This document shows positions 12,693 through 31,831 of a stretch of DNA of 64,000 nt, piece by piece; the stretch's first letter is position 1; every line of letters starts with the position of its first letter. Source of the stretch: Gemmatimonadota bacterium (GTDB lineage Bacteria; Gemmatimonadota; Gemmatimonadetes; Gemmatimonadales; GWC2-71-9); contig PNAE01000007.1 in NCBI GenBank assembly GCA_003169895.1, forward strand, positions 1,426,880 through 1,490,879. The letters are read 5' to 3'. A program made the translations under genes and the position numbers. The notes under the pieces were generated by a model. It made no database searches. It was not told the DNA's origin and was given only the letters and a program-made list of their open reading frames with translations.

Positions 12693-12734
12693 CTGATAAG
12701 CGTGAGGTCGGAGGTTCAACTCCTCCCAGGCCCA
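12693..12734 (+). pseudogene. tRNA-Ile(GAU) 3'-half remnant (anticodon loop to discriminator), att-like
   Basis: The sequence CTGATAAGCGTGAGGTCGGAGGTTCAACTCCTCCCAGGCCCA parses as anticodon loop CU-GAU-AA, 3' anticodon stem, AGGTC variable loop, T-arm GGAGG/TTCAACT/CCTCC, and acceptor CAGGCCC+A. It closely resembles the E. coli tRNA-Ile 3' half. No matching 5' half (GGGCCTG...) lies upstream. Confidence 0.7.
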
Positions 12735-12748
12735 CTGATCGAAAGCAT

Positions 12749-12791
12749 AAGTCCCGCATCGCGTTACCGACTGTGCGGGACTTCGCTTTTT
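12749..12791. terminator. intrinsic-terminator-like hairpin (bidirectional)
   Basis: AAGTCCCGCA-N15-TGCGGGACTT forms a 10-bp stem followed by CGCTTTTTC on the plus strand. The minus strand has TTATGCTTTC after the stem. It lies 15 nt after the tRNA remnant and about 80 nt after the stop of the minus-strand kinase (12868). Confidence 0.55.
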
Positions 12792-12867
12792 CATCGATTC
12801 TGTGCTGGAGTGTCTCGGCGCCTGCGGTCAACCGCGGCGGCTGAGGCCGACCCTACCTGCGGGGCGA

Positions 12868-15537
12868 TCATGGCCGTGTCGCCGCCGGCGCGGTCGAGTC
12901 GGCGTGCTGGAAGATCATCGGCCAGTGCTGGAGGTAGGCCACCGCGAGGCCGGTCGAAGACTGACGCAGAAGATATCGCTCGCCGTCGCCGCCGACGGCG
13001 AAACCGGTGCCGTTATCGTCAAAGGTGGAGCGCCGCCACGTTGGTACCGAAAACAGAGTGCGCGGCGTCCCGGGAGGCGCGCCCGCAGCAGCGATGTCCG
13101 CCACCTGCACGCGGCCGTCAGGCGTGAGGTATGTCAGTTGCCGACCACCATGCGTCCAGGCGGGCCAGCGACCGCCCTCAAGCGAAACCCGCAACGGTGG
13201 ACCGGAAGGCAGCGGCTGTACGTACACCTCATACCGGTCGGTTTCGTCGGACGTGTACGCGACGGAGTGGCCATCAGGGGAAAAGCGCCCATCCGACACT
13301 CGTCCCGGACGGATGATCGATTGCGTCTCGGCGCTACCATCCACCGGGATGATGCGGAGCGTACTGTCCTGTCGCACGAGCAGGAAACGACCGTCTGGCG
13401 ACCAGTCGAGTGGGAACCGGCATTCGCTGTTGCTGGAAAGCGTCGAGATTTCCTTGCCGACGACCCGCTCGACGCTCGTGCGGAGATCGCGATCCACGAT
13501 GCGACAACGATTGCCCCCGCGCATGGCGTAGACGAGGTGCGTGCCGTTGCCGTTGAAGGCCGGATGAGTGGTACCGAATGCGAAACCGGTCGTCGGAAAG
13601 GTGCTGTCCTGCACCAGGACCCGGGTGCCGCGGTTGGCATCGAGATCGTAGAGCCAGATGCCGGCGGTGTTGCCGGCGACAGCTACCATGGCCGGGCCGC
13701 CTCGCGCGGGTCGGACGCTCATAGTCCAGGCGCCATCTACCCGTACGGTGTCCCGGAGCAGCCCGCTGGCATCGTAGACGAGATACGGCCGGTCCTGCCC
13801 GCCGGGGAGGAATGCCAGCACGCCGTTCGACGACACCGCGAAGGTATGGATGCCCGCCTGGGCCCGGACGTCATTGGCGGCCCGGACTACCGGCCCTTCA
13901 AGTGCCAGTGAATTCAGGTTCAGTCGCTGTGCATCAAGGGCGCGCACGTCATTCTGGCTCGCCTTGAGCAGGTAGCCCGGGGCGACGACCGAGAATTCAA
14001 CCGTCCGGACCGGGAGCGTCGCGACGGTCTTCCCGTCAAGACTTGCCGCGATCATGTCGGTGAATTGGCCACGGGCAATCAGCATCCGTTTTCCGTCGGG
14101 AAGAAAGAGTCCCTTGAGCGACGGGCCGGAGCCGCGAGGAACCACGACCTTGCACGTTCCGCCGTCCGCTGGCACCGTCGAAATGCCGTCGCGATGCCCG
14201 AAGAGGATCAGCCCCAACTTGCTCCACGAACCTCCGGTTGCGTCGGCTACTGGGCAAAGCCTCCGCACCTGTCCGTTCGGCTCCGCCACCAGGAGAAACC
14301 CGCCGGCGAAAAATCCCAGCGATCGCCCATCGGGCGACCAGAATGGTGCGTTGGCGCCGTTCGAGCCATTCACGGGCTCGGCGTCCAGGCGATCAACGCC
14401 GCGCACCCAGAGGTTCCGCGACCCGTCCGCTGCGGCAAACACGAATGCGAGGCGACGACCATCCGGCGATAGCGCCAGCGACCGTTGCTCCCCGAAGCTG
14501 CCGCCAGCCGGGGCAAGGATCGACGTGGCCGTGAGTGCTCCGCTGCTCGCTTGACCCGTTCGCCACGGCCGCGCGGCCAGAATGCCGACGACCGCACCGC
14601 CGAGGGCGAGCGCCACGGCGGCAGCGATGACGAGTGGCCGGTTCCTCTTTCGCGTCCCATTGCTCGACGACCCTGTGCTCCGGCGTACGTGCATCTTGAC
14701 TGCGGGCGCGCCACCTTCGCGCAGTGCCGCGCCGAAGTCGGCGGCGGTTGCGAATCGATCTGCCGGCAACTTCTCGAGCGCGTGCAGCACCGCCGCCTCG
14801 ACGTGCTCGGGGACGGCCTTCCGTTGGGCCACGATCCCCCGGGGGTCCTCCGTGATCAGGCGCGCGACGATCGCCTGGACGCTCGGTCCCGTGAATGGTG
14901 GTTCGCCCACGAGCATTTCGTAGGTCACCGCACCGAGCGAGTAGATGTCGCTTCGTGCGTCGATGGCGCGCTCGCCCATGGCCTGTTCGGGGGACATGTA
15001 TTGTGGCGTGCCAAGCGAGAGTCCAGTCTGGGTCATCCGCTGTCCGCCGGCGGTCTGCACCGCGAGCGCGATGCCGAAATCGGCGACCAGTGCGTGGCCA
15101 TCCTGCAGCAGGATGTTCTCCGGCTTGATATCACGGTGAATCACGGCGCGCCCGTGCGCGTAGCTCAGTGCGTCCGCGACTTCCCGCGCAATGCGCATGG
15201 CGTCATCCACCGGTAGCTGGCGCTCGCGTTCGAGGCGAGTGCGCAGTGTTTCGCCGGTGACGAGCGGCATCACGTAGTACAGCAGTCCTTCGGCTTCGCC
15301 GCTGTCAAGCAGCGGCAGGATGTGCGGGTGCTGCAGCGCCGCCGTGGTCGTGATCTCCTGCACGAAGCGATCGGCACCGAGCACGGCAGCCAGTTCGGGC
15401 TTCAGGACCTTGATGGCGACCTTGCGCTTGTGCTTGAGGTCCTCGGCGAGATACACCGTCGCCATGCCGCCCTGGCCCAGTTCGCGGTCGATGCGGTAAC
15501 GGTCGGAAAGGGCCTCCCGAAGGCCGTCACGGCTCAT
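12868..15537 (-). CDS. Ser/Thr protein kinase with TM segment and C-terminal PD40/TolB-like beta-propeller repeats
   Basis: Hanks motifs GQGGMATVYLA, VAIKVL, HRDIKPENILL, DFGIA, YMSPEQ. A TM helix follows (LVIAAAVALALGGAVVGILAA), then repeated WSPDG-type blades (FWSPDGRSL, DWSPDGRFL, RFSPDGHSV). Confidence 0.9.
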   Translation of the reverse strand: MSRDGLREALSDRYRIDRELGQGGMATVYLAEDLKHKRKVAIKVLKPELAAVLGADRFVQEITTTAALQHPHILPLLDSGEAEGLLYYVMPLVTGETLRTRLERERQLPVDDAMRIAREVADALSYAHGRAVIHRDIKPENILLQDGHALVADFGIALAVQTAGGQRMTQTGLSLGTPQYMSPEQAMGERAIDARSDIYSLGAVTYEMLVGEPPFTGPSVQAIVARLITEDPRGIVAQRKAVPEHVEAAVLHALEKLPADRFATAADFGAALREGGAPAVKMHVRRSTGSSSNGTRKRNRPLVIAAAVALALGGAVVGILAARPWRTGQASSGALTATSILAPAGGSFGEQRSLALSPDGRRLAFVFAAADGSRNLWVRGVDRLDAEPVNGSNGANAPFWSPDGRSLGFFAGGFLLVAEPNGQVRRLCPVADATGGSWSKLGLILFGHRDGISTVPADGGTCKVVVPRGSGPSLKGLFLPDGKRMLIARGQFTDMIAASLDGKTVATLPVRTVEFSVVAPGYLLKASQNDVRALDAQRLNLNSLALEGPVVRAANDVRAQAGIHTFAVSSNGVLAFLPGGQDRPYLVYDASGLLRDTVRVDGAWTMSVRPARGGPAMVAVAGNTAGIWLYDLDANRGTRVLVQDSTFPTTGFAFGTTHPAFNGNGTHLVYAMRGGNRCRIVDRDLRTSVERVVGKEISTLSSNSECRFPLDWSPDGRFLLVRQDSTLRIIPVDGSAETQSIIRPGRVSDGRFSPDGHSVAYTSDETDRYEVYVQPLPSGPPLRVSLEGGRWPAWTHGGRQLTYLTPDGRVQVADIAAAGAPPGTPRTLFSVPTWRRSTFDDNGTGFAVGGDGERYLLRQSSTGLAVAYLQHWPMIFQHADSTAPAATRP

Positions 15538-15546
15538 GGGTATGCC

Positions 15547-17832
15547 TCATTGGATGAAATTCAACCGCTTCATCAGCGCAGCGAACCGCGGGTCAGATCG
15601 CAGCGGATCGAAGGTCCAGTCCACCTTCAGCCAGACCATTTGCTGCGAATTGGCCACATAGGCCTGCTCGAGATAGTCGAGCGCGCGAGCGTGATCGCCG
15701 AGGCCGAGATACACCAGTGCCAGGTTGTACGGCGCGACCTTTCCGCCAGGCGAAATCTTCTTCAACTCCCCAAGAGTCACCATCGCGCCGGCGCGATCAC
15801 CCGACTTCCCCTGGGCGTACGCCAGATTGGCGGTCACGAACGGCGGGGCACCCAAGGTCAGCGATTGCTTCAATTTCTCGATCGCCTCGCGGAAATTGCC
15901 CACGTGCAGCGCCATGATCCCTTCCTGCTCGACCGGGAAGTAGAAGGTTGGGTCGAGATCCGCTGCCTTCCGGTCCAGCTCCAGGGCTTTTGCCGTCCGG
16001 CCCGAGAATTCGAGTGACGCCACCTCATCGATCAGGATCGACGGCGAGAGCGGATCCAGCGCCATGGCGCGCTGGCCTTCGGCGATCGCCTCGTCGAAGC
16101 GCCCGATGAGCCCCAGCATCAGGCCGAACTGGTCGTGTGCGAAGGCATAATTGGGATTCAGGGCGATTGCCCGGCGGAGCTCCTGCTCGCTCCCGTCCCA
16201 ATCGTAGTCGAACCACGCCTTGAAGACGCCGAGCGATGTATGCGCCTCGGCCGACATGCTGTCGAGCGCTACCGCGCGTTCGGCGGTTTCCTTCGCTCTC
16301 GGCTTCGCATCGGCGACGGAAATGAATCCTTCGTTGAACGCCGCCCAAGTGTAGGCATCCGACAGCCCCGAGTACGCCGGGACGAACGTCGGGCTCAGCC
16401 TGACCGCAGTATCAAACTGCGCGATCGCCTTCTCAAGGTTTTCATCGCTGGGACGATTGAAGAAATATCGACCCTTGAGATAAGCGTCATGCGCCGCCGG
16501 ATCGACGGTCGGCGCGGCGGAAAGGCGGGACTGCTCGCCCGGCGTGAGCCGCACGTTGATCGCGCTCGCAATGGCCGACGCCAGCTCGGCCTGAAGCGCC
16601 AACACGTCGCTCGAACTGCGCTCGAAGGTCTGGGCCCAGAGGTGCCTGTCGGCGCGAGCGTCGATCAGTTGCGCGTTGATCCGTACCCGGTCGCCGACCC
16701 GGGTCACCGAACCCTCGACGACGGCATCGACGTTGAGGGTCCTGGCGATCGCCGGCGTCGGTGGACGATTGCTCCCCTTGAACTGCATTGCGGACCCACG
16801 CGAGGTGACCCGAAGCTGGCTGATCATCGCCAGGTCACTCGTCAGCTCATCCGTCATGCCCTCGGCGAAGTAGTCCTGGGTGGAATCGGCGGAATAGTTG
16901 TCGAGCGGGAGTACGGCGATCGAGTGGATCGCGGACGTCGGACCAGTGCCGCTCGAGCTCCCGCGTCGCGCGAACAGATACGCCCCGACAATGGCGACGA
17001 AGACGATCCCGACAGCCACCGCAAGCCCCTTCCATCTGCCTGGGCGCGCTTGCGGAGTCGGGGCCGGCGCGGCAGCGGCTCCGCTCGAGAGTGCCTCGGC
17101 AAACTCACGTGCGGTGGCGAACCGATCGATCGGTGCCTTGGCCAGAGCGCGCAAGACGGCCGCGTCGACAGCCGCCGGTACGGTGTCGCGGAGTACGCGC
17201 AACGACATGGCGCGCTCGGTCATCACCTTCGCGATGATCGCCTGGGCCGATGCGCCGGTGACAGGCGGCTCACCGGCGAGCATTTCGTACGTCACCGCCC
17301 CGAGGGCAAAGACGTCGCTGCGAGCGTCGAGGGCGCGCTCTCCGGCGGCTTGTTCGGGGCTCATGTAGCTCGGCGTGCCGAGCGAGAGCCCCGTTCCGGT
17401 GAGGCGGTCGCCGCCGGCCTCGCTCACGGCGAGTGCGATGCCGAAGTCCGTGAGGATCGCCTCGCCTTCGTGCAGCAGAATGTTCTCCGGCTTGATGTCC
17501 CGGTGGATCACGCCGTGGCGGTGGGCGTAGTCGAGCGCCGCAGCGATCTGGCGCGTGATAGTGAGCGCCTCGTCGATCCCGAGCTGCTTCTCCCGTGTGA
17601 GCCTGGCGCGAAGCGATTCTCCGCGCACGAAGGGCATGACATAGAAGAGCGTGCCGTCGACGGTCCCGGAGTCGATCAGCGTCAGGATGTGGGGATGGTC
17701 GAGCCTGGCGGTGATTTTGACTTCCGCGAGGAAGCGTTCTGCCCCGAGTGCCTGGGCGAGCTCGGGACGCAACACCTTGATCGCCACTTCGCGTTCGTGC
17801 TTGAGATCACGGGCGAGATAGACCGTGGCCAT
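15547..17832 (-). CDS. Ser/Thr protein kinase with TM segment, TolB-N-like domain and C-terminal TPR repeats (true start probably upstream, CTG at 17913)
   Basis: HRDIKPENILL, DFGIA, YMSPEQ; IAVLPLDNYSADSTQDYFAEGMTDEL; TPR repeats (AIALNPNYAFAHDQFG...). The first ATG is the Met inside the GAGGMATVYLA P-loop. The frame continues upstream as LSSDATQRLATALADRYTIERELGAGG with no ATG/GTG/TTG. Confidence 0.88.
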   Translation of the reverse strand: MATVYLARDLKHEREVAIKVLRPELAQALGAERFLAEVKITARLDHPHILTLIDSGTVDGTLFYVMPFVRGESLRARLTREKQLGIDEALTITRQIAAALDYAHRHGVIHRDIKPENILLHEGEAILTDFGIALAVSEAGGDRLTGTGLSLGTPSYMSPEQAAGERALDARSDVFALGAVTYEMLAGEPPVTGASAQAIIAKVMTERAMSLRVLRDTVPAAVDAAVLRALAKAPIDRFATAREFAEALSSGAAAAPAPTPQARPGRWKGLAVAVGIVFVAIVGAYLFARRGSSSGTGPTSAIHSIAVLPLDNYSADSTQDYFAEGMTDELTSDLAMISQLRVTSRGSAMQFKGSNRPPTPAIARTLNVDAVVEGSVTRVGDRVRINAQLIDARADRHLWAQTFERSSSDVLALQAELASAIASAINVRLTPGEQSRLSAAPTVDPAAHDAYLKGRYFFNRPSDENLEKAIAQFDTAVRLSPTFVPAYSGLSDAYTWAAFNEGFISVADAKPRAKETAERAVALDSMSAEAHTSLGVFKAWFDYDWDGSEQELRRAIALNPNYAFAHDQFGLMLGLIGRFDEAIAEGQRAMALDPLSPSILIDEVASLEFSGRTAKALELDRKAADLDPTFYFPVEQEGIMALHVGNFREAIEKLKQSLTLGAPPFVTANLAYAQGKSGDRAGAMVTLGELKKISPGGKVAPYNLALVYLGLGDHARALDYLEQAYVANSQQMVWLKVDWTFDPLRSDPRFAALMKRLNFIQ

Positions 17833-18065
17833 GCCGCCGGCACCGAGCTCGCGCTCGATGGTGTAGCGGTCGGCGAGCGCGGTGGCGAGCCGTTGCGTGG
17901 CGTCAGAACTCAGAGAGTGCCCCGCCGGTCAGGGAGAACAGAGTGCCAGGTGATGCCGGAATTGCTGGGGATGGGGACCCCATGAATATGCCCCCGAACC
18001 GGCGGGTGCGAAGTGAGAGCGGCGAGCGAGGTCGACCCGGCGGGGGGGCGCTCGAGGGTCCTTCG

Positions 18066-18109
18066 AGGTGTCCTCCGGGTGTCCGTTGGGTGTCCGTTGG
18101 GTATCTGCT
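18066..18109. repeat. tandem 11-nt repeat GGGTGTCCGTT (2 perfect + 2 degenerate units)
   Basis: aggtgtcctcc-gggtgtccgtt-gggtgtccgtt-gggtatctgct, located about 150-200 nt upstream of the kinase start. The same 11-mer pair recurs at 30430-30451 upstream of a kinase remnant, followed in both places by GTCGGAATCG. Confidence 0.6.
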
Positions 18110-18356
18110 ATCCCGTCGGAATCGGTGAAATATTGAGGCGGCCGCCCACTGGGCGAAATCCTCACCGACCGGCGGGTGCCAAACGTGGCGATAACTATTG
18201 CGATCTAGCGCGCCAGAACCTGAACCCAGGACCTGTTACGGGCAGAGCAGCGGCGCAGTGACGCCCCACGTCGGCTCGATCGCCAGTCGAGGTGTGTTAT
18301 AGCCGGCCAGGAGCGGAACCGCGGTGATGGCGCCGGTTGCGCGCGACCAGCGCGGC

Positions 18357-18956
18357 TTAGCGCACCACCACGGTATCCGGTCCGGCGACCTTCCGCACAT
18401 GACAGCCGTCGCTCCCGAACGTGTAGCTTGCGCTGAATCCCTTCCCGGCCGCGGTTCCAGTCACGCGGACGGCGTCGCCAGATTCGCGGACCTCGCCCAG
18501 GAAATTGTCGCTGAAGATGTCTACCGTGCCGGCGAGGAACACCGCGTCCTGCGGCACCGCGAACCCATGGCCGGTGCGTACGACGGTGTCGGCGACGGCG
18601 AGTCCCGTCACGGGCTGGCCGGCAGCGTCAACAGCAACGGCCGTGATGTAGGCGAAGATCGCGGTGCACGCGCCGCCGTTGCTGGAAGTGGTGCACGCGC
18701 TCGTTGCGACCGCGAGGAGGAGAAGGCGCCAATGGCGCTCCAGAGGAGCTAGTCGGGTCCTTCCTCCTCCAGCGTGATCGGCGCCCTCCTCGGCGCTCAA
18801 GCGCTGCCATTGCCGGATCAGTTGCGGGGCCACCGCCAGTTCCCGGGCCAGTTCGGCGACGGTGAGTTCCTGGCGGCCTAAGCGCGCGACCTGCTCCTGC
18901 CTGAACTGCGGCGTGACGACCCGACGACCATCCGCCTTGCGGCGATGCGTTTCCAT
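18357..18956 (-). pseudogene. chimeric ORF: IS3-family OrfA (HTH) N-terminal fragment fused in frame to a lipoprotein-like C-terminal domain
   Basis: The N-terminal ~55 aa (RRVVTPQFRQEQVARLGRQELTVAELARELAVAPQLIRQWQRL) look like IS3/IS911 OrfA. This is followed by a signal/lipobox-like RLLLLAVATSAC and a ~125-aa Gly/Val/Thr-rich domain. No OrfB and no IS ends are present. Confidence 0.4.
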
Positions 18957-19191
18957 CCGACGACCCTCCGGTGGGAAGTAAACCTACGCTTCCCAAAGTG
19001 CCTCGGCGAATTGGGGTACAGACCAAACCCGAGTTTCGACCAATGAGACTCGTGGCGTCATCACGGCCCCTTCACGGCGGCCCGCAATCCCGCGACATTG
19101 TACAACCGGCCACCGCGAATCACCAACTCCGACTTTCGCAAGTCGCTCACGTGCGCTGCGGGCCGTCCATTCACGACAATGAGATCGGCGA

Positions 19192-19365
19192 TCTTGCGGC
19201 AAATCTTTGAGGTCGACCCGCTCCGGTGCCCGTGCTGCCACGGGACCATGTGGATCATCGCGTGCATCACCCAGACGGCGGTGATCGATCAGATCCTCAC
19301 CCACCGTGGCACGCCGCGCAGAGCCGCGCTACATGCTCAGAGTCCCGATTGAAATTCCTATCGGG
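19192..19365 (+). mobile_element. IS91/Y2-transposase C-terminal tail remnant, copy a
   Basis: Encodes ...ILRQIFEVDPLRCPCCHGTMWIIACITQTAVIDQILTHRGTPRRAA*, the characteristic zinc-ribbon tail of IS91-family transposases. No catalytic domain lies upstream. It is a near-identical direct repeat of 21435-21594. Confidence 0.6.
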
Positions 19366-19458
19366 CACCGGTATCCGGCGATGTCGTGGCACTGGAGGGT
19401 GTAAACGTCTACTTGCTGACCGGCGTGATACCGTGACGTCCTGGGCTGTACACCGTTG

Positions 19459-19592
19459 TCATCCTGAGCGAAGCGCGCGTCGCGCGCGCAGTCGAAGGAC
19501 CTCGGATCCAGGCGCAGGGACCGACATTTCAGCGCGGAACCGCGGTCCTTCGACTGCGTCGGTGCTTCGCACCGACTTCGCTCAGGATGACA
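19459..19592. repeat. 134-nt imperfect palindromic (MITE/REP-like) element
   Basis: GTCATCCTGAGCGAAG (19459-19474) pairs perfectly with CTTCGCTCAGGATGAC (19577-19592). Inner arms CAGTCGAAGGACC (19490-19502) pair with GGTCCTTCGACTG (19545-19557). It lies 20 nt downstream of the amidohydrolase stop. Confidence 0.6.
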
Positions 19593-19612
19593 TGTTCGGT
19601 GGAGCTAGGCTG

Positions 19613-20809: not shown

Positions 20810-20876
20810 TGCCCAGAAGCAGAGAAGCGCCCGGCTGGCCGGGCGCTTCGTTAGGTCTGCACTGACGACGGTCAGC

Positions 20877-20987
20877 CTACTGGTAGGTGAGGGCGTCTTG
20901 GGCTCCCGAGAGGACCGACGCGCCCAAGGTCAATTGGCTCAGGGTCGCCTCTTCCCGGATTACCGGGGCAACGAACTTCTTCTTCAT
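20877..20987 (-). CDS. 36-aa peptide P1 with lasso-type leader: [36 protein letters not shown]
   Basis: GGAGG lies 4 nt before the ATG (20987). The first 21 residues are conserved in three paralogs despite several synonymous codon changes. The stop TAG (20879-20877) is separated by 1 nt from the amidohydrolase reading frame. Confidence 0.6.
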   Translation of the reverse strand: MKKKFVAPVIREEATLSQLTLGASVLSGAQDALTYQ

Positions 20988-21065
20988 GCTTCCTCCGCGG
21001 AGAATCGGGCCATCGCTACGGCCGGGCCATCCCGGGGCGCGCAGCGAGGACCGCCGGCTTAGACA

Positions 21066-21167: not shown

Positions 21168-21197
21168 AGCGCCTCCTCAGGGAATGCCACTTTCGGT

Positions 21198-22772: not shown

Positions 22773-24769
22773 GCGCGCGGGCCGAGCGCGGTGGCTGGGG
22801 TGAACCGCCGCCCGAACGGGTGGAACAACGCATTGTCATTGAGCGCGACAACACCGTCACCGCCCGATCCGGCAAGGTCGAGTACGGCCAGGGCATCCGC
22901 GCCGGGTTCGCCATGATTGTCGCCGAAGAACTCGGGGTGCGGTTCGACCGGGTTCGCGTCGAACTCGGCGAAACCGATCGTGTGCCGTGGGATATGGGGA
23001 CCTTCGGCAGCATGTCGACCGCGGTTGACGGCTCGTTGCTCCGCGCCGCCGCCGCCGTTGCTCGCGCGATGCTGCTCGAGCGCGCCGCCGCGCGATGGCA
23101 GCTACCGATGGACGGGCTCGACACGCGAGACGGTGCCGTCGTCGCATCCGATGGTCGGACGCTCTCGTTCGCAGCGTTGACGGCGGGCGAGCCGCTCGCT
23201 GGACCGGTGGCCTCCGCGGTGCTGCGACCGATGACCGAGGCGGTCGATCAGCCGCGCCGCACCGGCGCATTCGACATCGTCACCGGCCGGGCGCGCTATC
23301 CTGGCGACATTCGCCTTCCCGGGATGGTGCACGGACACGCGCTGGCGCCGCCGCGGTCCGGGTGCGGGTTGCTCGCACTCGTGGATCGCGGTGCAGCGGC
23401 CGTCTCCGGTGTGATTGCGGTGGTGCGGGATGGCGACTTCGTCGGGGTCGTCGCCGAGCGGGACGAGCAGGCGCACGAAGCGCTCAGGCTCCTCCATGTC
23501 GATTGGGGACCACCACCACCACCGGCCGCGCCGACGCAAATCGAGATGCGCAACGATGGCGGCGTGGACGAGGCGTTCGCTGGCGGGCACGGGATCATCG
23601 CCGCCGAATACTCGGTGCCGCATATCGCCCATGCGTCGATCGGCCCGAGTGCAGCCGTCGCGTCGGTTACGCGCGATCGCACCGACGTGTATGCCGCCAC
23701 GCAGCGCCCATTCGGTCTGCGTGACGAAGTGGCGGGGCTGCTTGCCACCCCTCCCCAGCGGGTGAGCATCCACCCGACCGCGATGGGCGGGATGTACGGG
23801 CGGGGGAACATGAACGATGCCGCGCTCGAGGCGGTGCGCCTCTCACGCGCCGTCCAGCGTCCCGTGATGGTGCAATGGACCAGGACCGAGGAATTCCAGC
23901 GGAGCCCCGCGCGACCGGTCCTCGAGGCTCACCTTGAGGCCGTGCTGACCGACGGCACGATCACCGCGTGGCGCTCGAGCATCCGGACGAACCCGCACGC
24001 CTACGTTGGCGCGGTGGTCCCGCCGCAGGTGCTTGAAATCACGTCGGGACGCAACGCGGTGCCGGCCTACCGGCTTGGGCGGGCGGCTGTCATGCTCGAG
24101 GTGGTCCCGGCGAGCATTCGCACCGGCGCGTTTCGTTCGCTGGCGGCCGCGCCGAACATCTTCGCCATAGAATCGTTCATCGACGAACTTGCCGGCGCCG
24201 CCGGCCGGGATCCGATCGCATTCCGGCTCGAACACCTCGATGATCCGCGCCTGCGTCGCGTCCTCGAAACGGTGCGTGAACGGAGCGGGTGGGACCGCCA
24301 CGGGCAGGTGGCCGGACGCGGGCTTGGTGTCGCCTGCGCCATATACAACGATACCGCGGTGGCGCAGGTGGCAGAGGTCGTCTGCACGGATGGCGCCACG
24401 GTCCGGCTGGAGCGAATCTGGTGCGCGGTCGACGCCGGTCACCTGGTGCATCCCGACGGCGCGCGGAATCAGATCGAGGGAGGGATCCAGCAGGCGGCGA
24501 GCTGGACGCTGCTCGAGGCGCTGGCTGTTGACGATGGCGCGATCGCGACGACGAATTGGCGAGACTATCCCATCGCGACCTTCCGCGACGCACCGGAACG
24601 GATCGACGTAGTGTTCACGACGACACCCGGTCAGCGATCGTCCGGGACGGGTGAGCCCGGCTCGGTGCCGACGGCCGCGGCGATCGCCAACGCGGTGTTC
24701 GCCGCCTGCGGCGTGCGCGTCCGCCGGCTCCCCTTTGCGCGCGGGGTCAACGACGCACGCTCTCCCTGA
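22769..24769 (+). CDS. molybdopterin-binding large subunit (IorB/aldehyde-oxidase-like), no Tat signal
   Basis: The ATG at 22769 overlaps the small-subunit stop (ATGA). It shows EYGQGIRAGFAMIVAEELGV and a C-terminal GTGEPGSVPTAAAIANAVFAACG, typical of this family. Confidence 0.85.
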   Translation: MSARAERGGWGEPPPERVEQRIVIERDNTVTARSGKVEYGQGIRAGFAMIVAEELGVRFDRVRVELGETDRVPWDMGTFGSMSTAVDGSLLRAAAAVARAMLLERAAARWQLPMDGLDTRDGAVVASDGRTLSFAALTAGEPLAGPVASAVLRPMTEAVDQPRRTGAFDIVTGRARYPGDIRLPGMVHGHALAPPRSGCGLLALVDRGAAAVSGVIAVVRDGDFVGVVAERDEQAHEALRLLHVDWGPPPPPAAPTQIEMRNDGGVDEAFAGGHGIIAAEYSVPHIAHASIGPSAAVASVTRDRTDVYAATQRPFGLRDEVAGLLATPPQRVSIHPTAMGGMYGRGNMNDAALEAVRLSRAVQRPVMVQWTRTEEFQRSPARPVLEAHLEAVLTDGTITAWRSSIRTNPHAYVGAVVPPQVLEITSGRNAVPAYRLGRAAVMLEVVPASIRTGAFRSLAAAPNIFAIESFIDELAGAAGRDPIAFRLEHLDDPRLRRVLETVRERSGWDRHGQVAGRGLGVACAIYNDTAVAQVAEVVCTDGATVRLERIWCAVDAGHLVHPDGARNQIEGGIQQAASWTLLEALAVDDGAIATTNWRDYPIATFRDAPERIDVVFTTTPGQRSSGTGEPGSVPTAAAIANAVFAACGVRVRRLPFARGVNDARSP

Positions 24770-24870
24770 CTGAAGCGCCAACGGATCCGACGACACGGAT
24801 TCCACGGGTCACCGGATTCTCAACGAGCACCGAAGCGCCGAGCGCCCCGCGCCGCCATGAAACGGCGGCG

Positions 24871-26772
24871 CTACCGACCAGAGAGGACCGGTTCCAGGCG
24901 GTCCGGAGCGGCAGACTGAGGCTGCGGCTCGGCAAGAGTCACCGCCGGTAGTTGCTCGCGCGTGAGTGTCTCGCGCTCCTGCAGCAGGCGCGCACCGTCG
25001 TCCAGCGCGGCGTGGTTCCTGGTGAGGATCGCGACGGCTCGCTTGAGCGCGGCCGCCACCAGGTTGCGCACGGCGCCTTCGATCTCCCGCGCGGTCGCTT
25101 CGCTGTAGACCCGCGACTCCGGCGCAATCAGTGCGCGAGGACCGAGAAAGGCATTGGTGGGCTCACCATACACCACGTGTCCTACGGTTTCATCCATCCC
25201 GTGGCGCATGACCATTTCGCGGGCCAGTTCGGTGGCCTTGACCAGGTCGTCGGCCGCGCCGGTGGACAACTCGCCGAATGCGACAAGTTCGGCGGCCCGG
25301 CCGCCGAGGAGCACGGTCATCCGTCCCTCGAGCTCCTTGCGGGTGGCGATGTAGCGCTCTTCCAGCGGCCGCTGCAAGGTGAAGCCAAGTGCGCCGAGGC
25401 CGTGCGGAATGATCGACACCTTCTGTACCGGATCGGCGCCGGGGGTGGCAAGCGCCACCAGTGCGTGCCCCATCTCATGGTACGATGTGATCCTCCGCTC
25501 GCGGGCATTCAGCACCCGGCTCTTCTTCTCCAATCCTGCGACGATGCGCTCCACGGCAGCGGTGAAGTCGGCGAGGCCCACCGCGTTCGCGCCGCGGCGC
25601 GTGGCCGTGAGGGCCGCCTCGTTGACCAGATTGGCAAGGTCGGCGCCGGTGAAGCCGGGCGTCATCGCCGCCACGTCATCGAGCGTGAGCGCGGGATCGA
25701 GCGGCACCTTCTTGACATGCACATGGAGGATCTGCACTCGCCCGGCACGATCAGGCCGGTCCACCAGGATCTGGCGGTCGAAGCGGCCCGCCCGCAGCAG
25801 CGCAGGGTCGAGCGTTTCAGGCCGGTTGGTGGCCGCCAGCAATATCACCCGCGATTCCGGGGTGAACCCATCCATCTCGGCGAGGAGCTGATTGAGCGTC
25901 TGCTCCTTCTCGTCGTTGGCGCCGCTCAGCACGCTGGCGCCGCGGGTGCGGCCGAGGGCATCGATCTCGTCGATGAAGATGATGCAGGGAGCACCCTGCC
26001 GGGCGCGGCTGAAGAGGTCGCGTACGCGGGCCGCGCCCACGCCCACGAAGAGTTCGACGAATTCCGATCCGTTGATCGAGTAGAATGGCACGCCGGCCTC
26101 GCCCGCAACGGCCCTGGCCAGCAACGTCTTGCCGGTGCCCGGCGGGCCGACCAGGAGAATGCCCTTGGGAATCCTCGCGCCGAGGCGGCCGAATGACGCC
26201 GGGTCCTTGAGGAACGCTACCACTTCGCGGAGCTCCGCCTTCGCCTCGTCGATGCCGGCCACGTCGTTGAATGTCACCGAGATGTCGCGCTCGGCGAAGA
26301 TCTTGGCGCCGCTGCGTCCGAAGCCAAGGGCCCCGGCCGCCTGCTGGCCCATGACGCGCCGACCCAGGAACATCCAGAGCGCGAAGAACGCCGCCATCGG
26401 CAGGACCCAGGACAGCAGCATCTCGATCCAGCTGTTCGGGGCATCGCCGGCGAACTCGACTCCGCGCGCGCGCAACTCGGCAACGAGGGCCGGATCGATT
26501 CTGGTCGTGACGACCTCGCTGCGGCCGAGCGCATCGGGCGCCTTGAGCGTGGCACGAATGGAGTTGGTTCCCACATCGACCCGGCGTACGCGCCCCGAAT
26601 CGAGCAGCTGCACGAAGGTGCTGTACGGGATGCGCTGCCGGGAGCTCCCGATCAGCAGGCGCGATGCGACCAGGGCCGCAACGACCAGCAACGGAAAGAG
26701 CCAAGCCATGGTGCCGCGAGGGCGGGACCCGTCACGTCGTGGGCCGGCTGGGGGTTCAGGACGATCGGCCAC
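24871..26772 (-). CDS. ftsH: ATP-dependent zinc metalloprotease FtsH
   Basis: AAA+ Walker [23 protein letters not shown], Walker [13 protein letters not shown] region, and the zinc motif HEMGHALV. There is an N-terminal TM pair. Confidence 0.93.
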
Positions 26773-26802
26773 ACATCCTCCGGTTGTCGCGGGTCTGTGC
26801 CA

Positions 26803-27306
26803 TCAGGGTGTCGTGGCAACCTCGGGAACCGGCACGTCGGCTGGACGGAGGGGCTGGCTCTGTGACAGCAGCGAGCGGCCCCACGCCTCGGCCCCGGCGA
26901 GTTCTTCCTGGTTTGGCCGCCCGCGGTTGAAGATCCGCGGGCCGATCCTGCCGATGAGGCGGCTCCACCCACGAGCCGAGATGCCGCCGAGGAAGACCAT
27001 CCCCTTGGCCTCGAACAGCAGCTGCAACTGGTGAATCGTCTTCGCATCGCCCGATGCGTGCATGGTGCAGAATGCTGCGGCTCGCTTGCCCGGCATGGCC
27101 GGCATCCGCGCGATGAACTTGCGGACCGCGCGCGAGGGACCGCCGTATTGCACCGGCGTCCCAACGCAGATCAGATCACAGTCCGGAACCCGGGTCATAT
27201 CCACGCTTTCAAGGCTCACGGCAGCGACGCCGAGACCGGTGGCGACGGCCTGCGCGAGCTTCCGGGTGTTGCCACTTTCCGAGTGGTAGATGACGAGCGC
27301 GCTCAT
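26803..27306 (-). CDS. flavodoxin-family protein
   Basis: MSALVIYHSESGNTRKLAQAV is an FMN-binding loop. The ATG at 27306 is preceded by AAGGAG with a 6-nt spacer. The track start at 27312 is 2 codons upstream. Confidence 0.75.
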   Translation of the reverse strand: MSALVIYHSESGNTRKLAQAVATGLGVAAVSLESVDMTRVPDCDLICVGTPVQYGGPSRAVRKFIARMPAMPGKRAAAFCTMHASGDAKTIHQLQLLFEAKGMVFLGGISARGWSRLIGRIGPRIFNRGRPNQEELAGAEAWGRSLLSQSQPLRPADVPVPEVATTP

Positions 27307-27488
27307 GACCAACTCCTTCTTGACCTTCTGCCGGTGACCAAGCCGGGCTGCCGATTAGCGAGCAGTGCGCGGCACTATAGGTGTTCGCTGCGGCCTAACC
27401 CATCGGGCAATTGCCGACGGTCTGTCGTCAAAGGTCCGACCCGGAATCACCGACACGTTGTCGGCCAATGCCGGACTGACCCTGGCTG

Positions 27489-27527
27489 CTTCCCGGCAGA
27501 ATGGCGGGAATTCCTTGTAGAATCAGG
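27489..27527 (+). repeat. 39-nt repeat R1, copy a
   Basis: CTTCCCGGCAGAATGGCGGGAATTCCTTGTAGAATCAGG is 38/39 identical to 30475-30513. A diverged relative lies at about 18135-18170 (..TGGGCGAAATCCTC..). Confidence 0.7.
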
Positions 27528-27589
27528 AGTTCAATCAGTAGCCTGCTAGAGGTTTAGTAGCGCGCATTGCGGGGAGCCGTTCGGCATCG

Positions 27590-27720
27590 CATCGAGTCGG
27601 GGTCGATCGCTCGCCGCCAATCTCGGCGGAGATTTCCGGACGGAGCACCTTGAGGGCCACGTTACGGCCCCATACTCTGGCACCTGGTGGTTCCGGTTGC
27701 TTCGACGCGGTTTCACAGCG
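27590..27720 (-). pseudogene. decayed N-terminal fragment of a Ser/Thr kinase
   Basis: The minus-strand frame reads IASGMARC...GRNVALKVLRPEISAEIGGER. Compare intact paralogs, GGMATVYLA...R.VAIKVLRPEL...G.ERF. Homology is lost on both sides. Confidence 0.4.
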
Positions 27721-27863
27721 TGCCATGCCACTGGCGATTGAACAGTGCGATGGTTGCAGGGAAGGTCAGTGCACGCGTTCGCCCATGCCGGTGCGACTCA
27801 ACGCGAAACGGACCCCGGCAGGCGGTAAGGACGGCCCCCGTGCGCCCGAGAGCAATGTGTCAC

Positions 27864-28325
27864 TCACGGGCTCGGCGGCAACTCGCCGAGGGCCTCGAGG
27901 TCGCTCAGGTCCTTGCGTCGTCCGGCCGCGCGCTTGTTCGCGATCAGAACCCGCCGGCTGATGAATGCCGCGGGCGCTCCGTCGAGTTCATGCTCGACTC
28001 GGTCGGGCCAGGCGTCATCGAAGGTGGCAACGCCGGTGATGCTGGTGAGCAGGTCAATCCGGTGCGGCGGCAGCCCGAGCTGGATCACGATTCCGGGCCG
28101 CTGAAGATCCTGCACCGTAATGCCGAGCGAATCCATCGGCGCGCCGAATGCAGCCAATGCGCGCCAGGCACGTTCAGCGTTCGAGGCGGCGGGGTCGAGC
28201 CAGATATCGAGGTCCTGCGTACCACGCGGGACTCCGTGCAGCGCGAGCGCGTGGGCGCCGACGATCAGGAACCGCGCGCCGGCCGTCTCCAGGGCGGCGA
28301 GCAAGTCCCGCCAGTCGTCACCCAC
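27864..28325 (-). CDS. minimal nucleotidyltransferase-fold protein (DUF2204/MNT-like), possible TA component
   Basis: FLIVGAHALALHGVPRGTQDLDIWL matches the G..A...hG..R.T.DlD nucleotidyltransferase signature. Its start overlaps the stop of a small upstream ORF by 8 nt. Confidence 0.5.
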   Translation of the reverse strand: MGDDWRDLLAALETAGARFLIVGAHALALHGVPRGTQDLDIWLDPAASNAERAWRALAAFGAPMDSLGITVQDLQRPGIVIQLGLPPHRIDLLTSITGVATFDDAWPDRVEHELDGAPAAFISRRVLIANKRAAGRRKDLSDLEALGELPPSP

Positions 28326-28458
28326 CCGGCCGGATCACTCGTCCGGGCATGTCTGCGCGCCCGTAGCTGGGAATCGGTCGGCCGGTGAGCCGCCACATCC
28401 GGGTCGAAAGCAGTGCCACCATGGCGAGCCGCTCGCCGGCCGTTGTAGTCGCTCGCAT
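28318..28458 (-). CDS. small partner ORF (46 aa) of the nucleotidyltransferase
   Basis: MRATTTAGERLAMVALLSTRMWRLTGRPIPSYGRADMPGRVIRPGG. ATG at 28458; alternative ATGs at 28482 and 28503. It overlaps the downstream gene, suggesting coupling. Confidence 0.35.
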   Translation of the reverse strand: MRATTTAGERLAMVALLSTRMWRLTGRPIPSYGRADMPGRVIRPGG

Positions 28459-28628
28459 GTCGTCGCGCGGCTCCGCACCCATGCGAAAAACCCGGGCCGG
28501 CATCCTGCCGTGAGCTTCTGGATCTCCGGGTGACTTCATCAGCGAAATATAGTTGACCAGGGACAACACCAGCCTGCACGCGGCCGTATTCGCCCCAGAC
28601 CAATGGGTAGGCCAGCACCGTCCACACC

Positions 28629-29006
28629 GTGGCCAACCAGACGCTGACTTTCGGATCGCCGCTGCCGTCATCAGGAGTAATCGCGGGCGCCGGGGCGCCA
28701 TACAAGGTGCTCAACGCTTCGGTCACCTTTGCCGGTGACTACCAATCGCTGTCGCTGTCATACGGGTCGGTTGTCGGCAACAACTTCTCCATGGTAGCGA
28801 GCACGAGCTATGCTGGTGGAAACACCGTGAACCTGGTGGCGCCCAACCTCGCACCGGTCGCCGGCTACCTCACCAGCTGGGCGCCGCCGACGGGCACCGC
28901 CAACTACACGCTCAAGGCGGCCTCGATCAATGACGTCGCCCAGACCACGAACTTCTGCGTCGACGGGTTCAAGTACTTCGCGGCTATGGCCACCGGGACG
29001 ATGTAG
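28629..29006 (+). CDS. hypothetical protein (125 aa), possibly a gene fragment
   Basis: GTG-initiated ORF with an in-frame stop 19 nt upstream. It has a Gly/Ser/Thr/Asn-rich beta-type composition, no signal peptide and no recognisable motif. Confidence 0.3.
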   Translation: MANQTLTFGSPLPSSGVIAGAGAPYKVLNASVTFAGDYQSLSLSYGSVVGNNFSMVASTSYAGGNTVNLVAPNLAPVAGYLTSWAPPTGTANYTLKAASINDVAQTTNFCVDGFKYFAAMATGTM

Positions 29007-29134
29007 CAGCACGGGTAGCGCGGCGAGCGAGAGCTGACCGGGGGCGCTTCACCCCCGCCGTTTGCCGGCGATGCATGGCACGGGATACATTGGCTCCACT
29101 CGCCACGGCCCTCATCTCCAATGGAGTTCAACGC

Positions 29135-29590
29135 ATGAAGAACAACTGGTTCGCTCTCGTAGTCGCCTTTGGGGCGGTGTCGTCGCCCCTTCCTGCGCAG
29201 CAGACAGACGTGATGGTGGCCGTGAACCGCTTTGTCGACGGTTACAACAAGAGTGATGCAAAAATGTTGGCTGCGGCGTGTTCGGACCAGACCTCCATCA
29301 TCGATGAGTTTCCACCCCACGAGTGGCATGGCATGGGCGCTTGCTTGACGTGGATGAAGGACTACGACATCGACGCGAAGAAGAACGGGATTACGGACGG
29401 CGCAGTGGTCCTGGGGAAGCCGTCGCATGTTGACGTTACCGGCGACCGTGCCTACGTGGTCATCCCGTCGAATTACACGTACAAGCAGCGGGGCGCGGCG
29501 ATGAAAGAAGTGGGTTCAGCGTTCACGTTTGCGTTGCACAAGGATCCATCCGGGTGGCGCATTGTCGGCTGGTCCTGGGCGAAGAAGTAG
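29135..29590 (+). CDS. secreted SnoaL/NTF2-like (DUF4440-type) protein
   Basis: The ATG at 29135 follows GGAG with an 8-nt spacer. Signal peptide MKNNWFALVVAFGAVSSPLPAQQ. The body (VNRFVDGYNKSDAKMLAAAC...WRIVGWSW) has NTF2-like size and pattern. Confidence 0.55.
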   Translation: MKNNWFALVVAFGAVSSPLPAQQTDVMVAVNRFVDGYNKSDAKMLAAACSDQTSIIDEFPPHEWHGMGACLTWMKDYDIDAKKNGITDGAVVLGKPSHVDVTGDRAYVVIPSNYTYKQRGAAMKEVGSAFTFALHKDPSGWRIVGWSWAKK

Positions 29591-29694
29591 GCGCCGCCTA
29601 ACACTTTCACGACGTCGATTGAATTTCCTGTCCTTCCGCGGTGTGTGTAAGATAGAGATCCCTAATTCGAATTCAGGCCAATTCAGAACCTCCA

Positions 29695-30141
29695 ATGGAG
29701 ACGAAAGCCATGCGCAGAATGAACGTTCCATTCTCCGGGGCTCTGTCCTTGTCGATGATCGTTCTCATCTCGACGGTCTCCACAGGGGCAGCACAGGCGC
29801 CGGCCGCGCCGGCACATCAACATTACGTGTACTGCATCTCAGGCTCGAGTATGCCAGTCGTCTATTTCAGCGAAGTTTTTGCGGCGGCGACGACAAGCGA
29901 TAAGGTTGGACCGTCTCCCGCGCCGAACAGGTTCTACGAGATCGCCGACCCCTTCAAGGCGTTTCTCGAGAAGAAATATGGCGCCGAGAGCCATTCCACC
30001 ACTCCCCCCAGCTGCCGTGTCACTAACCCGGACCCCGCGGGCCTCGAGGCAGCGCAAAAGGCCAAGCAGGGATTTGAAGACATGTACAAGCAGCAATACA
30101 AGAAACAGATCGTCGAGACCGGTTGGAAATACACGCCATAG
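29695..30141 (+). CDS. secreted hypothetical protein (148 aa)
   Basis: Signal-peptide-like N-terminus ([20 protein letters not shown]) and a Lys/Gln-rich C-terminus. No known motif. Confidence 0.5.
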
Positions 30142-30161
30142 TCCGTCCGCCGCCGCACACG

Positions 30162-30412
30162 ATTGCCGCCGAAGGTGGTGACGGAGTTGCGGCCGGTGGC
30201 TTCGTTGATCGCTTTTGCTACGCCGAAATCGGTCACCAGGGCGTGGCGGCCAGAGAGCATCACGTTGTCGGGCTTGATGTCGCGATGCACCACGCCGTGT
30301 TCGTGTGCCTCGACGAGCGCATCGACCACCTCGGTGATCAGGCGGACCGCCTCCAGCGCAGCTCCATGGGAACGGCGCGCCCTCGGCCGAGCGCAACTTC
30401 GGCGGAACCGTG
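30162..30412 (-). pseudogene. internal fragment of a Ser/Thr kinase (catalytic loop/DFG), frameshifted and truncated at both ends
   Basis: The minus strand encodes [60 protein letters not shown], almost identical to the 50354-53014 kinase. The preceding [11 protein letters not shown] is in another frame. The P-loop region and everything after the DFG segment are missing. Confidence 0.65.
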
Positions 30413-30429
30413 GGCTTGAGATCCCACCT

Positions 30430-30451
30430 AGGTGTCCGTTGGGTGTCCGTT
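30430..30451. repeat. tandem 11-nt repeat (A/G)GGTGTCCGTT x2
   Basis: aggtgtccgtt-gggtgtccgtt followed by agcGGGTCGGAATCG. The module is homologous to 18066-18125. Confidence 0.6.
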
Positions 30452-30474
30452 AGCGGGTCGGAATCGAAAAAACG

Positions 30475-30513
30475 CTTCCCGGCAGAATGGCGGGAAATCC
30501 TTGTAGAATCAGG
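30475..30513 (+). repeat. 39-nt repeat R1, copy b
   Basis: CTTCCCGGCAGAATGGCGGGAAATCCTTGTAGAATCAGG, 38/39 identical to 27489-27527. Confidence 0.7.
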
Positions 30514-30547
30514 CTTTTCGTCGGACTTGCGAAAAATATCGAGTGGC

Positions 30548-30589
30548 CTGATTAGCGTGAGGTCGGAGGTTCAACTCCTCCCAGGCCCA
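30548..30589 (+). pseudogene. tRNA-Ile(GAU) 3'-half remnant, second copy (att-like direct repeat)
   Basis: CTGATTAGCGTGAGGTCGGAGGTTCAACTCCTCCCAGGCCCA is 41/42 identical to 12693-12734 in the same orientation. It is preceded by GAGTGGC, and no 5' half is present. Confidence 0.7.

Positions 30590-30932: not shown

Positions 30933-31831
<899 letters not shown>

Follow-up and report, generated by a model that had tools for sequence, protein, structure and literature searches.

Within tRNA genes, the anticodon loop is reportedly a sublocation of integration by tyrosine integrases (Williams 2002, NAR 30:866). A described example of a tRNA-integrated island is PYG1 of Pyrococcus yayanosii, with its 44-bp repeats (PMC9897764). 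Tandem accretion of integrative elements and CIMEs (cis-mobilizable elements) is described for arrays of the ICESt1/ICESt3 type (reviewed in PMC5704250), and the symbiosis ICEs of Bradyrhizobium integrate at tRNA-Ile, a site that also holds element remnants (PMC9239051). Tandem accretion at a tRNA gene is a textbook, well-known type of event.

The locus reported here comprises the window, that is the whole 64-kb stretch of DNA that was analysed, and the DNA to its left, where two islands, called X and A, follow a tRNA-Ile gene. As in islands of the PYG1 type, which occupy the 3' part of a tRNA gene, an integrase gene adjoins the rebuilt tRNA, a partial tRNA stands at the far end, and tRNA-derived direct repeats flank the island, the identity beginning in the anticodon loop and ending at the discriminator base. 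Unlike in that type, the target is a stand-alone tRNA-Ile(GAU) gene of a Gemmatimonadaceae-like soil bacterium, and the integrase clade has no close viral relative in IMG/VR and gives generic NCBIfam matches only. The locus resembles the ICESt1/ICESt3-type arrays in its head-to-tail elements at one att site, in its related integrases with the same core specificity, in its probable older units, which appear to have kept att remnants and have no integration genes, and in a number of units that varies by allele; in contrast to those arrays, neither X nor A has a conjugation or relaxase gene on record. With the Bradyrhizobium ICEs it shares tRNA-Ile as an integration site accompanied by element remnants, the kinship of the integrases not having been compared, but those elements are large conjugative symbiosis islands of Alphaproteobacteria. 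X and A are also like mobile defence islands at hot spots in carrying almost wholly defence genes and in varying among strains, whereas no phage-satellite genes (capsid, primase, packaging) were found in either. We propose that the 42-nt repeats of this locus are most probably att cores left by successive integrations of islands into the stand-alone tRNA-Ile(GAU) gene, a reading to which we give a probability of about 0.85.

Results

Two 42-nt cores are found in the window on the forward strand. Copy 1 (12693-12734) reads CTGATAAGCGTGAGGTCGGAGGTTCAACTCCTCCCAGGCCCA and corresponds to positions 32-73 of tRNA-Ile(GAU); copy 2 (30548-30589) has the same sequence with an A to T change at the sixth base (A37 to T relative to the tRNA). 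The 42-mer runs from the anticodon loop through the 3' strand of the anticodon stem, variable loop, T arm and 3' acceptor strand to the discriminator A. A difference at just one of 42 bases is little for an old, unselected scar. When up to 3 mismatches were allowed, these were the only cores detected in the window, against 0 expected from shuffles. The first-pass annotation had described two repeats, different at one base, as the 3' portion of tRNA-Ile(GAU), with no intact tRNA in the window; the sequences read exactly so, and ARAGORN found no tRNA in the 64 kb.

In order to extend the locus to the left, we used public contigs that were 100% identical to the window over their overlap. This walk reached an intact tRNA-Ile(GAT) gene at 20244-20317 of contig L014, about 22.1 kb left of window base 1; a walk with the partial Z1 protein gave a 53% relative only, and a first metagenome scan gave no match. 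The gene had been predicted to lie outside the window, and a different 3' half had been named as an argument against att scars. The 42-nt core sequence is in fact the same in the intact tRNA, in copy 1 and in a further fragment, copy 0, and core identity ends sharply at tRNA positions 32 and 73. Allowing up to 14 mismatches, the 86.8 kb thus covered contain four cores on a single strand, one in the intact gene and three as fragments, with no further decayed core; membership of a dispersed repeat family, the other objection raised at first, does not agree with this count. The tRNA gene stands alone and is immediately preceded by a protein-coding gene. A location in an rRNA operon was considered and rejected, no rRNA being found in the window or in the ~10 kb upstream of the tRNA, so that the expectation that tRNA-Ile(GAU) sits in an rRNA spacer is inapplicable to this copy. 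In several related contigs tRNA-Ile is found near bipA.

The order from left to right is tRNA-Ile, island X, copy 0, island A, copy 1, a 17.9-kb interval and copy 2, with core-to-core spacings of 17,869 bp (X), 16,932 bp (A) and 17,855 bp (interval). The right 12.7 kb of island A occupy window positions 1-12692; the whole island measures 16,932 bp, with its start ~4.2 kb beyond the left edge of the window. A Logan contig of 16,947 bp (L003) corresponds exactly to island A, its ends being 30-nt overlaps within the repeat. The GC content of the islands is 55-60%, against 62-70% elsewhere (in the window, further right).

Each island encodes a tyrosine integrase (PF00589) whose gene lies outside the window. 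The intA gene (392 aa; L001 4455-5633) is situated ~110 nt right of copy 0, and intX (379 aa; L014 18383-19522) is ~720 nt from the tRNA, with a 168-aa ORF between them. The two proteins are 51% identical, and their alignment shows the motifs TGHRIGA, HSLRRKF and CYQ, consistent with the conserved recombinase boxes. X and A have in common a module in which the integrase gene is accompanied by an HTH gene and by a small ORF that weakly resembles HTH_17 and may encode an excision factor. Five of the six intA homologues examined (50-77% identity) have a tRNA-Ile(GAT) gene 35-130 nt away on the opposite strand, while the remaining one adjoins tRNA-Ser(GGA); a homologous integrase gene (L129) adjoins a Prim-Pol/DUF3987 primase gene. 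The best IMG/VR matches of intA were partial and 31-37% identical, no close relative of the clade being found among the viral contigs of that database, and the NCBIfam matches were to generic Xer/integrase models. A search for integrase genes had been proposed at the outset; it yielded intA and intX left of the window and none in the interval, nor does an integrase gene stand beside either in-window core (copies 1 and 2).

The cargo of island A comprises a PDC-M71B-like TPR protein (its 3' part in the window), a Dcm methylase with a Bpu10I-like endonuclease, an RmuC-like protein, an LmuB-like SMC ATPase and a GmrSD/NsnA-like nuclease. The content of both islands is almost wholly restriction-modification and other PADLOC-recognised defence genes, and the islands vary among strains of one population. 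Among the genes called in the two islands, no Pfam family of a relaxase, type IV secretion or coupling protein was detected, a result that speaks against ICEs. Neither island contains detectable capsid, primase or packaging genes, and PHROGs matches were limited to integrase and HTH proteins; a prophage or phage satellite was rejected on this ground and on the weak IMG/VR matches of intA. X and A are classed here as tRNA-integrated islands on their end-located tyrosine recombinase, their tRNA-derived repeats with an intact tRNA, the existence of an unoccupied site and the target of the integrase homologues.

The cores are accompanied by repeats of a second kind. The P arm of island A (12471-12587, forward strand) has two clusters of the repeat GAGTGGCCAA(AT), at 12489-12516 and 12563-12587. 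Interspersed with these clusters are degenerate core-like GCRTGAGGT pieces at 12471, 12518 and 12552, the three extra pieces noticed before copy 1 in the first-pass annotation; the window contains 6 matches to this motif versus 1.29 expected. The motif GAGTGKCCAA occurs twice at each end of A, including just after copy 0, and GGTGTCCGTT occurs twice at each end of X. In both islands these repeats are in direct orientation, ~72-74 nt past the left core and 127-129 nt ahead of the right one, and may function as arm sites. The P' regions follow a common plan of core, hairpin and arm repeats, which is also found in the copy 1 flank and, degraded, in the copy 2 flank and at an 18.0-kb site. The copy 1 flank (12735-12815, forward strand), which adjoins the tRNA directly in the island-free allele, contains a terminator hairpin at 12749-12783, whose T run extends to 12791, and, ~72 nt past the core, the remnant of an arm repeat (GGAGTGTC, 12807-12814). 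A manual count gives ~71% identity between this flank and the P' arm of L125, a related island, so that the flank looks like a truncated relic P' arm. The predicted attP of A is ...GTTTTACGAG, the 42-nt core and CTTTCCCAAACG; that of X is ...GAAGGGGCCG, the 42-nt core and TACCTTCCAAACG. No circular or attP junction was observed among the assembled contigs, those of L003 and L015 being uninformative as their ends lie inside the repeat.

The interval between copies 1 and 2 (12735-30589) differs from these islands. It was present in all contigs examined (about 24 + 24 + 17), which include no interval-free allele; its GC content is the same as that of the sequence to its right, and tblastn revealed no significant remnant of an integrase or other module. 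Its genes are ordinary-looking (FtsH, aldehyde oxidase, kinase paralogues). Two Ser/Thr kinase genes make up its left part (12868-17928, reverse strand); one encodes a PD40 beta-propeller and the other TPR/TolB_N domains, and they have paralogues at 38-43 kb and 48-53 kb. They are followed at 17990-18098 (forward strand) by a P'-arm-like relic with no tRNA core, in which a hairpin remnant, GCCCCCG ... GACCCGGCGGGGGGGC, precedes GGTGTCC repeats (18067-18098) that have the same 11-nt spacing as those beside copy 2. Debris of insertion sequences surrounds an amidohydrolase gene at 18357-21910: an HTH_Tnp_1-like ORF (18357-18956), a direct repeat of ~180 bp (19186-19365 and 21429-21594, two stretches 96% and 98% identical) and an ORF (21248-21910) with weak similarity to the C-terminus of ISCR/IS91 transposases. 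A 567-bp segment with a 143-aa ORF (29603-30169, forward strand) recurs with 99.1% identity elsewhere in the same population, at an unrelated locus, and because of this second copy several contigs break at the segment. It is followed by a Ser/Thr kinase pseudogene fragment (30167-30353, reverse strand), 84% identical to 52477-52663.

Copy 2 is preceded by two arm-type repeats GGTGTCCGTT (30431-30451, forward strand), which start 117 nt upstream of the core. In X this motif recurs with the same geometry, 127 nt ahead of copy 0, with a spacing of 12 nt versus 11 nt beside copy 2. A role of GGTGTCCGTT as a kinase promoter element was rejected: the motif is absent at the 50-53 kb kinase, the closest relative of the pseudogene, and it also borders island X, in which there is no kinase gene. 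To the right of copy 2, the flank (30590-30675, forward strand) resembles a P' region: its terminator hairpin is degenerate, and one arm-like GGCGTGGTCCTATTG lies at 30657-30671, ~70 nt past the core. This flank represents the ancestral one of the tRNA or else another relic. The interval thus has cores at both ends, an intact right arm and a left arm consisting of a hairpin and one partial repeat, and its two borders differ in arm type. We searched for the ancestral state at copy 2 with the Metallophos gene at 33648-34571 as query, in 13 genome and 80 metagenome loci. The nearest relatives compared (66-95% protein identity) had only window 32992-34573 in common; ARAGORN found a tRNA at 0 of the 28 Metallophos loci scanned, and neither the genome nor the metagenome scan revealed the T-arm motif there. 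Copy 2 is most probably a relic attR core, left by an older island whose arm repeats resembled those of X. The interval is probably not a currently mobile island, since it is in every contig examined and contains no integrase gene; only at its borders does it look like relic att arms.

Another possibility is that copy 2 is a working secondary att site and the fixed interval a CIME, so that an integrase with X-like arm specificity would recombine copy 2 with an upstream core and 18-53 kb would be excised or transferred en bloc. The 41 of 42 core bases retained in copy 2, its two perfect GGTGTCCGTT repeats at the right distance and the core-to-core spacings given above speak for this, and for other bacteria both CIMEs and the excision of accreted elements as composites are documented (PMC5704250). 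However, an interval-free allele is absent from the contigs surveyed, the arm spacing at copy 2 differs from that of X, and the P' side beside the tRNA and copy 1 is truncated. We therefore consider a working site at copy 2 improbable, and prefer to regard it as a relic.

Alternative alleles were found in contigs of the same peatland population. Neither X nor A is present in L033, L038 and L040, in which a 163-aa gene, the intact tRNA-Ile and the copy 1 flank are contiguous and the position of copy 1 is the 3' half of the intact tRNA gene. Contig L036 carries X without A; in L032, L034, L035, L037 and L039 island A adjoins copy 1; and the X+A tandem is found in L001, L002, L013 and L014. The junctions are exact across all alleles. 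Copy 1 is the attR core of island A because of the array order, the integrases, the arm repeats, the cargo, these alleles and the sites of the homologues, and island A is still gained or lost within the population. The first-pass suggestion of att scars from serial integration is borne out by the two integrase-bearing islands between the tRNA and copy 1; its proposal of an island array holds, with the correction that the 12.7-30.6 kb interval itself is probably not mobile at present. Conservation in all relatives, which it had set against its idea, does not apply to the islands left of copy 1, which are variable.

As the data are wholly metagenome assemblies, the tandem and alternative alleles could be artefacts in which single-island strains were chained or skipped via the 42-45-nt repeat. 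Logan contigs do break exactly within the repeat, and strains coexist in a sample (L005 and L038 are both from ERZ28655023). Against this, the X-copy 0-A junction recurs in four assemblies that are independent of one another (ENA contig k141_730562, a WOOD18 scaffold, a 1.1-Mb JGI contig and NCBI GCA_003167595.1), the island-free junction in three and the X-only junction in one; moreover, if k141_730562 was assembled by MEGAHIT with k=141, as its name alone suggests, real reads across the 45-nt repeat would have been needed. Such an artefact is thus very improbable. An integrase-independent origin of the 42-mers, as a dispersed repeat or by tRNA duplication and decay, would fit the in-window copies, which have no adjoining integrase, but is effectively refuted by the presence of just four cores, all on one strand and at island borders, the sharp ends of identity, the integrases and arm repeats flanking the upstream copies, and alleles that differ by exactly one island.

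Discussion

Direct observation covers the array with its integrases, arm repeats and alternative alleles, as well as the preference of the integrase family for tRNA-Ile. Together with the cores, these features suggest that the islands integrate site-specifically into positions 32-73 of tRNA-Ile(GAU), from the anticodon loop to the 3' end, with a crossover presumably in or near the anticodon loop. Since the attP of each island would carry the 42 nt, a terminator and its own type of arm repeats, integration would restore a complete tRNA gene and push the old 3' half downstream. Repetition of this event would produce the present succession from tRNA-Ile to copy 2. The interval before copy 2 may then represent the remains of at least one, and probably two, decayed islands, which would have lost their integrases and most left arms while insertion sequences moved in.

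A bolder version can be imagined, in which an undescribed integrase clade shuttles ~17-kb defence cassettes into tRNA-Ile(GAU) of Gemmatimonadota, 30548-30589 is still a working att site, the whole 18-53 kb downstream block is movable and the near-equal unit lengths reflect the size limit of a transfer vehicle. We regard it as a long shot; if it were true, 'chromosomal' genes for kinases, FtsH and an oxidoreductase could move as a unit.

Successive integration into the tRNA gene, which we favour, leaves the general understanding of such systems unchanged. The locus is useful for the annotation of partial tRNAs and for island-finding tools, and IntA and IntX are a candidate orthogonal pair of tRNA-Ile integrases, with predicted att cores and arm sites in hand. 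It provides a cleanly resolved natural example of defence islands exchanged at one tRNA hot spot, in an uncultured peatland Gemmatimonadaceae-like population for which the island-free, single and tandem alleles are all documented.

The repeats match the 3' part of a tRNA-Ile gene outside the window

The first-pass annotation had proposed that two 42-nt direct repeats, here copy 1 (12693-12734) and copy 2 (30548-30589), are att scars of serial integration in an array downstream of a tRNA-Ile gene lying outside the window. On re-reading, both repeats had the sequence described, a single base apart (CTGATAAG vs CTGATTAG), and ARAGORN found no intact tRNA in the window, as had been claimed. Looking up the exact protein of the Dcm methylase gene (1459-2808) gave metagenome contigs that overlap the window and are 100% identical to it over the overlaps; they derive from peatland samples, with MAGs GCA_003167595.1 and GCA_003169745.1 and assemblies labelled WOOD18 among them. 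Joining these pieces produced an 86.8-kb sequence, whose positions are given in window coordinates. It contains an intact 74-nt tRNA-Ile(GAT) gene on the window's + strand, at about -22140 to -22067 (20244-20317 of contig L014; Rfam score 74 bits), immediately after a 163-aa protein-coding gene. A third copy of the 42-mer (copy 0, -4239 to -4198), identical to copy 1, lies about 4.2 kb left of window base 1. Alignment to the intact gene showed that its 3' 42 nt equal copies 0 and 1 exactly, the identity beginning precisely at tRNA position 32 (anticodon loop base 1) and stopping at the discriminator A. Such a layout is known for integrases crossing over in the anticodon loop, and we infer the same crossover position for the integrases described below.

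Neither the window nor the approximately 10 kb upstream of tRNA-Ile was found to contain rRNA. Because this gene is stand-alone, the earlier remark that tRNA-Ile(GAU) belongs in the rRNA spacer does not apply to it. At Rfam gathering thresholds, the only match in the window was a SAM riboswitch (RF00162; 58067-58189, minus strand; 44.8 bits, just over the gathering score). Contig L033 carries two 86-nt class II tRNA genes (13634-13719 and 19162-19247, outside the window), 0.8 and 6.3 kb upstream of tRNA-Ile, with Rfam tRNA scores of 46.6 and 50 bits. They have a long variable arm, A73, no G3:U70 and a body that we judge Leu-like from the D-arm sequence; their anticodon, CGC, reads the alanine codon GCG. 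Both fold as cloverleaves, with compensatory changes in the anticodon stem between the two, and they could be pseudogenes or else tRNAs that mistranslate or recode.

Two islands with related integrases follow the tRNA gene

The 42-nt cores start at -22108, -4239, 12693 and 30548, delimiting three units of 17,869, 16,932 and 17,855 bp: island X, ending at copy 0; island A, ending at copy 1; and a fixed interval, ending at copy 2. The first and third units are 14 bp apart in length, yet have no genes in common. GC content is 55-60% over roughly the first 12.7 kb of the window and 62-70% to the right. The GCRTGAGGT 9-mer occurs six times versus 1.29 expected, and the three pieces previously noted before copy 1 are indeed there, all within 90 nt upstream of it; these degenerate core-like pieces sit inside the P arm of island A, the flank before its right core.

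Each island carries a tyrosine integrase: intA (392 aa), about 110 nt right of copy 0, and intX (379 aa) in island X, 51% identical to each other. Each is preceded by a conserved gene pair, one member encoding an HTH protein (215 or 246 aa), the other being a small ORF (127 or 122 aa). In island A the small ORF is weakly similar to HTH_17, and ORFs at the same position in homologues have faint similarity or none; the small ORF is a candidate excision factor. A separate HTH_17 gene is also present in island X. Between intX and the tRNA gene (L014 19500-20140), the final ~16 codons of intX recur beyond a 168-aa ORF (13/16 residues identical in translation), suggesting that this ORF is an insertion in the 3' end of that integrase gene region.

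After the left core of both islands come a terminator hairpin and then two arm-type repeats (predicted integrase sites) at about +72 to +74 nt. These repeats are found again 127-129 nt before the right core, every copy being in direct orientation; X has the motif GGTGTCCGTT and A the motif GAGTGKCCAA. The islands thus have a common core but different arms, a difference that could allow either integrase to target its own island when the two lie in tandem.

Cargo consists almost wholly of defence genes: in island A, PDC-M71A/B, Dcm with a Bpu10I-like endonuclease, an RmuC-like protein, an LmuB-like ATPase and a GmrSD/NsnA-like nuclease; in island X, EcoRII with Dcm and Vsr, MzaB/C/D-like proteins, a CARF-like protein, a D12 methylase and an ORC/Cdc6-like ATPase. 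Neither island has recorded conjugation, relaxase or phage genes, and intA has no close relative in IMG/VR. A 46-nt repeat whose copies are 65-80% identical occurs at 8909-8954, 10477-10522 and 12330-12375; two copies lie immediately upstream of minus-strand island A cargo genes and the remaining one overlaps the start called for a further such gene. The copy at 12330-12375, the one that was reverse-complemented, has a perfect TATAAT box on the minus strand, and the repeat is therefore probably a shared promoter.

Of six intA homologues examined (50-77% identity), five have a tRNA-Ile(GAT) at a distance of 35-130 nt on the opposite strand, which is also how intA is placed here; the sixth adjoins tRNA-Ser(GGA). 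At three of the loci the other neighbour of tRNA-Ile is bipA, so that a stand-alone tRNA-Ile(GAU) is present in several related contigs.

Alternative alleles at the tRNA-Ile locus

Looking up the kinase gene just right of copy 1 yielded three types of contig. In three (L033, L038, L040), the 163-aa gene, the intact tRNA-Ile and the copy 1 flank are contiguous, without X or A. In L036, the right end of island X is fused directly to the copy 1 flank, and in five others (L032, L034, L035, L037, L039) island A adjoins this flank, as in the window. Junction sequences of all allele types are exact. A chimeric assembly is an unlikely source of the X-A junction, since that junction was found in four independent assemblies. 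Island-bearing and island-free contigs came from one sample (L005 and L038). The alternative alleles, read from assembled contigs, are evidence of the mobility of X and A. With an intact tRNA, two integrase islands and exact allele junctions, the proposal of serial integration beyond an outside tRNA-Ile is supported.

The interval between copy 1 and copy 2

The 17.9-kb interval occurs in all contigs examined, also in those lacking X or A, and no integrase or module remnant was found in it. It contains two Ser/Thr kinase genes (paralogues of kinases farther right), insertion-sequence debris around an amidohydrolase gene, and genes for aldehyde oxidase subunits, an FtsH paralogue, a flavodoxin and a SnoaL-like protein. 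A 567-bp segment (29603-30169; 143-aa ORF) is duplicated elsewhere in the genome, 99.1% identical at an unrelated locus (L123 5894-6460) near a 284-aa integrase, a PemK toxin gene and a transposase fragment; a kinase pseudogene lies at 30167-30353. The amidohydrolase gene is flanked by a direct repeat of about 180 bp (19186-19365 and 21429-21594; two stretches, 96% and 98% identical), which ends in a hairpin. The C-terminal peptide that it encodes weakly resembles an ISCR/IS91 transposase, and the repeat may reflect one-ended transposition. Six large Ser/Thr kinase genes form three adjacent pairs (12868-17928, 38050-43328 and 48047-53038), their N-terminal regions sharing 62-76% DNA identity; a further kinase (320 aa) is encoded at 30869-31831. 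A 40-nt repeat, GCTTCCCGGCAGAATGGCGGGAAWTCCTTGTAGAATCAGG, which includes a short hairpin as well as a TAGAAT box, occurs upstream of the flavodoxin gene (27488-27527) and between arm repeats and copy 2 (30474-30513), with one mismatch.

The borders of the interval look like relic att arms. The flank right of copy 1 is about 71% identical (manual count) to the P' arm, the flank after the left core, of a related island in contig L125, the likeness taking in the entire hairpin as well as a partial arm repeat at +72. Two perfect GGTGTCCGTT repeats lie upstream of copy 2 and start 117 nt from its core. At 18.0-18.1 kb, GGTGTCCGTT repeats come after a hairpin remnant and have the 11-nt spacing seen beside copy 2; no core was found at this relic. 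The flank right of copy 2 has a degenerate hairpin and a single arm-like motif at about +70. On the simplest reading, the interval would comprise at least two decayed islands, roughly 12735-18000 and 18000-30589, and copy 2 would be the surviving attR, or right-end scar, of the older one. Copy 2 is near-perfectly preserved for a relic attR. If the copy 1 flank is indeed what remains of a P' arm, the allele lacking both X and A is no virgin site. Related species have only 32992-34573 in common with the window, whose nearest named relative, a Gemmatimonadaceae MAG, matches it at 89% identity in one gene only.

Relation to known systems

The partial tRNA genes that integrating elements leave behind form a recognised category (PMC9897764), and tandem accretion at one att site, with decayed units termed cis-mobilizable elements (CIMEs), is well described (PMC5704250). 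tRNA-Ile is a known target of the symbiosis ICEs of Bradyrhizobium (PMC9239051). The principle is already known; the novelty lies in the host lineage, the integrase clade and the natural alleles as a set. The locus is an ordinary tandem array of tRNA-integrated islands, unusually well resolved.
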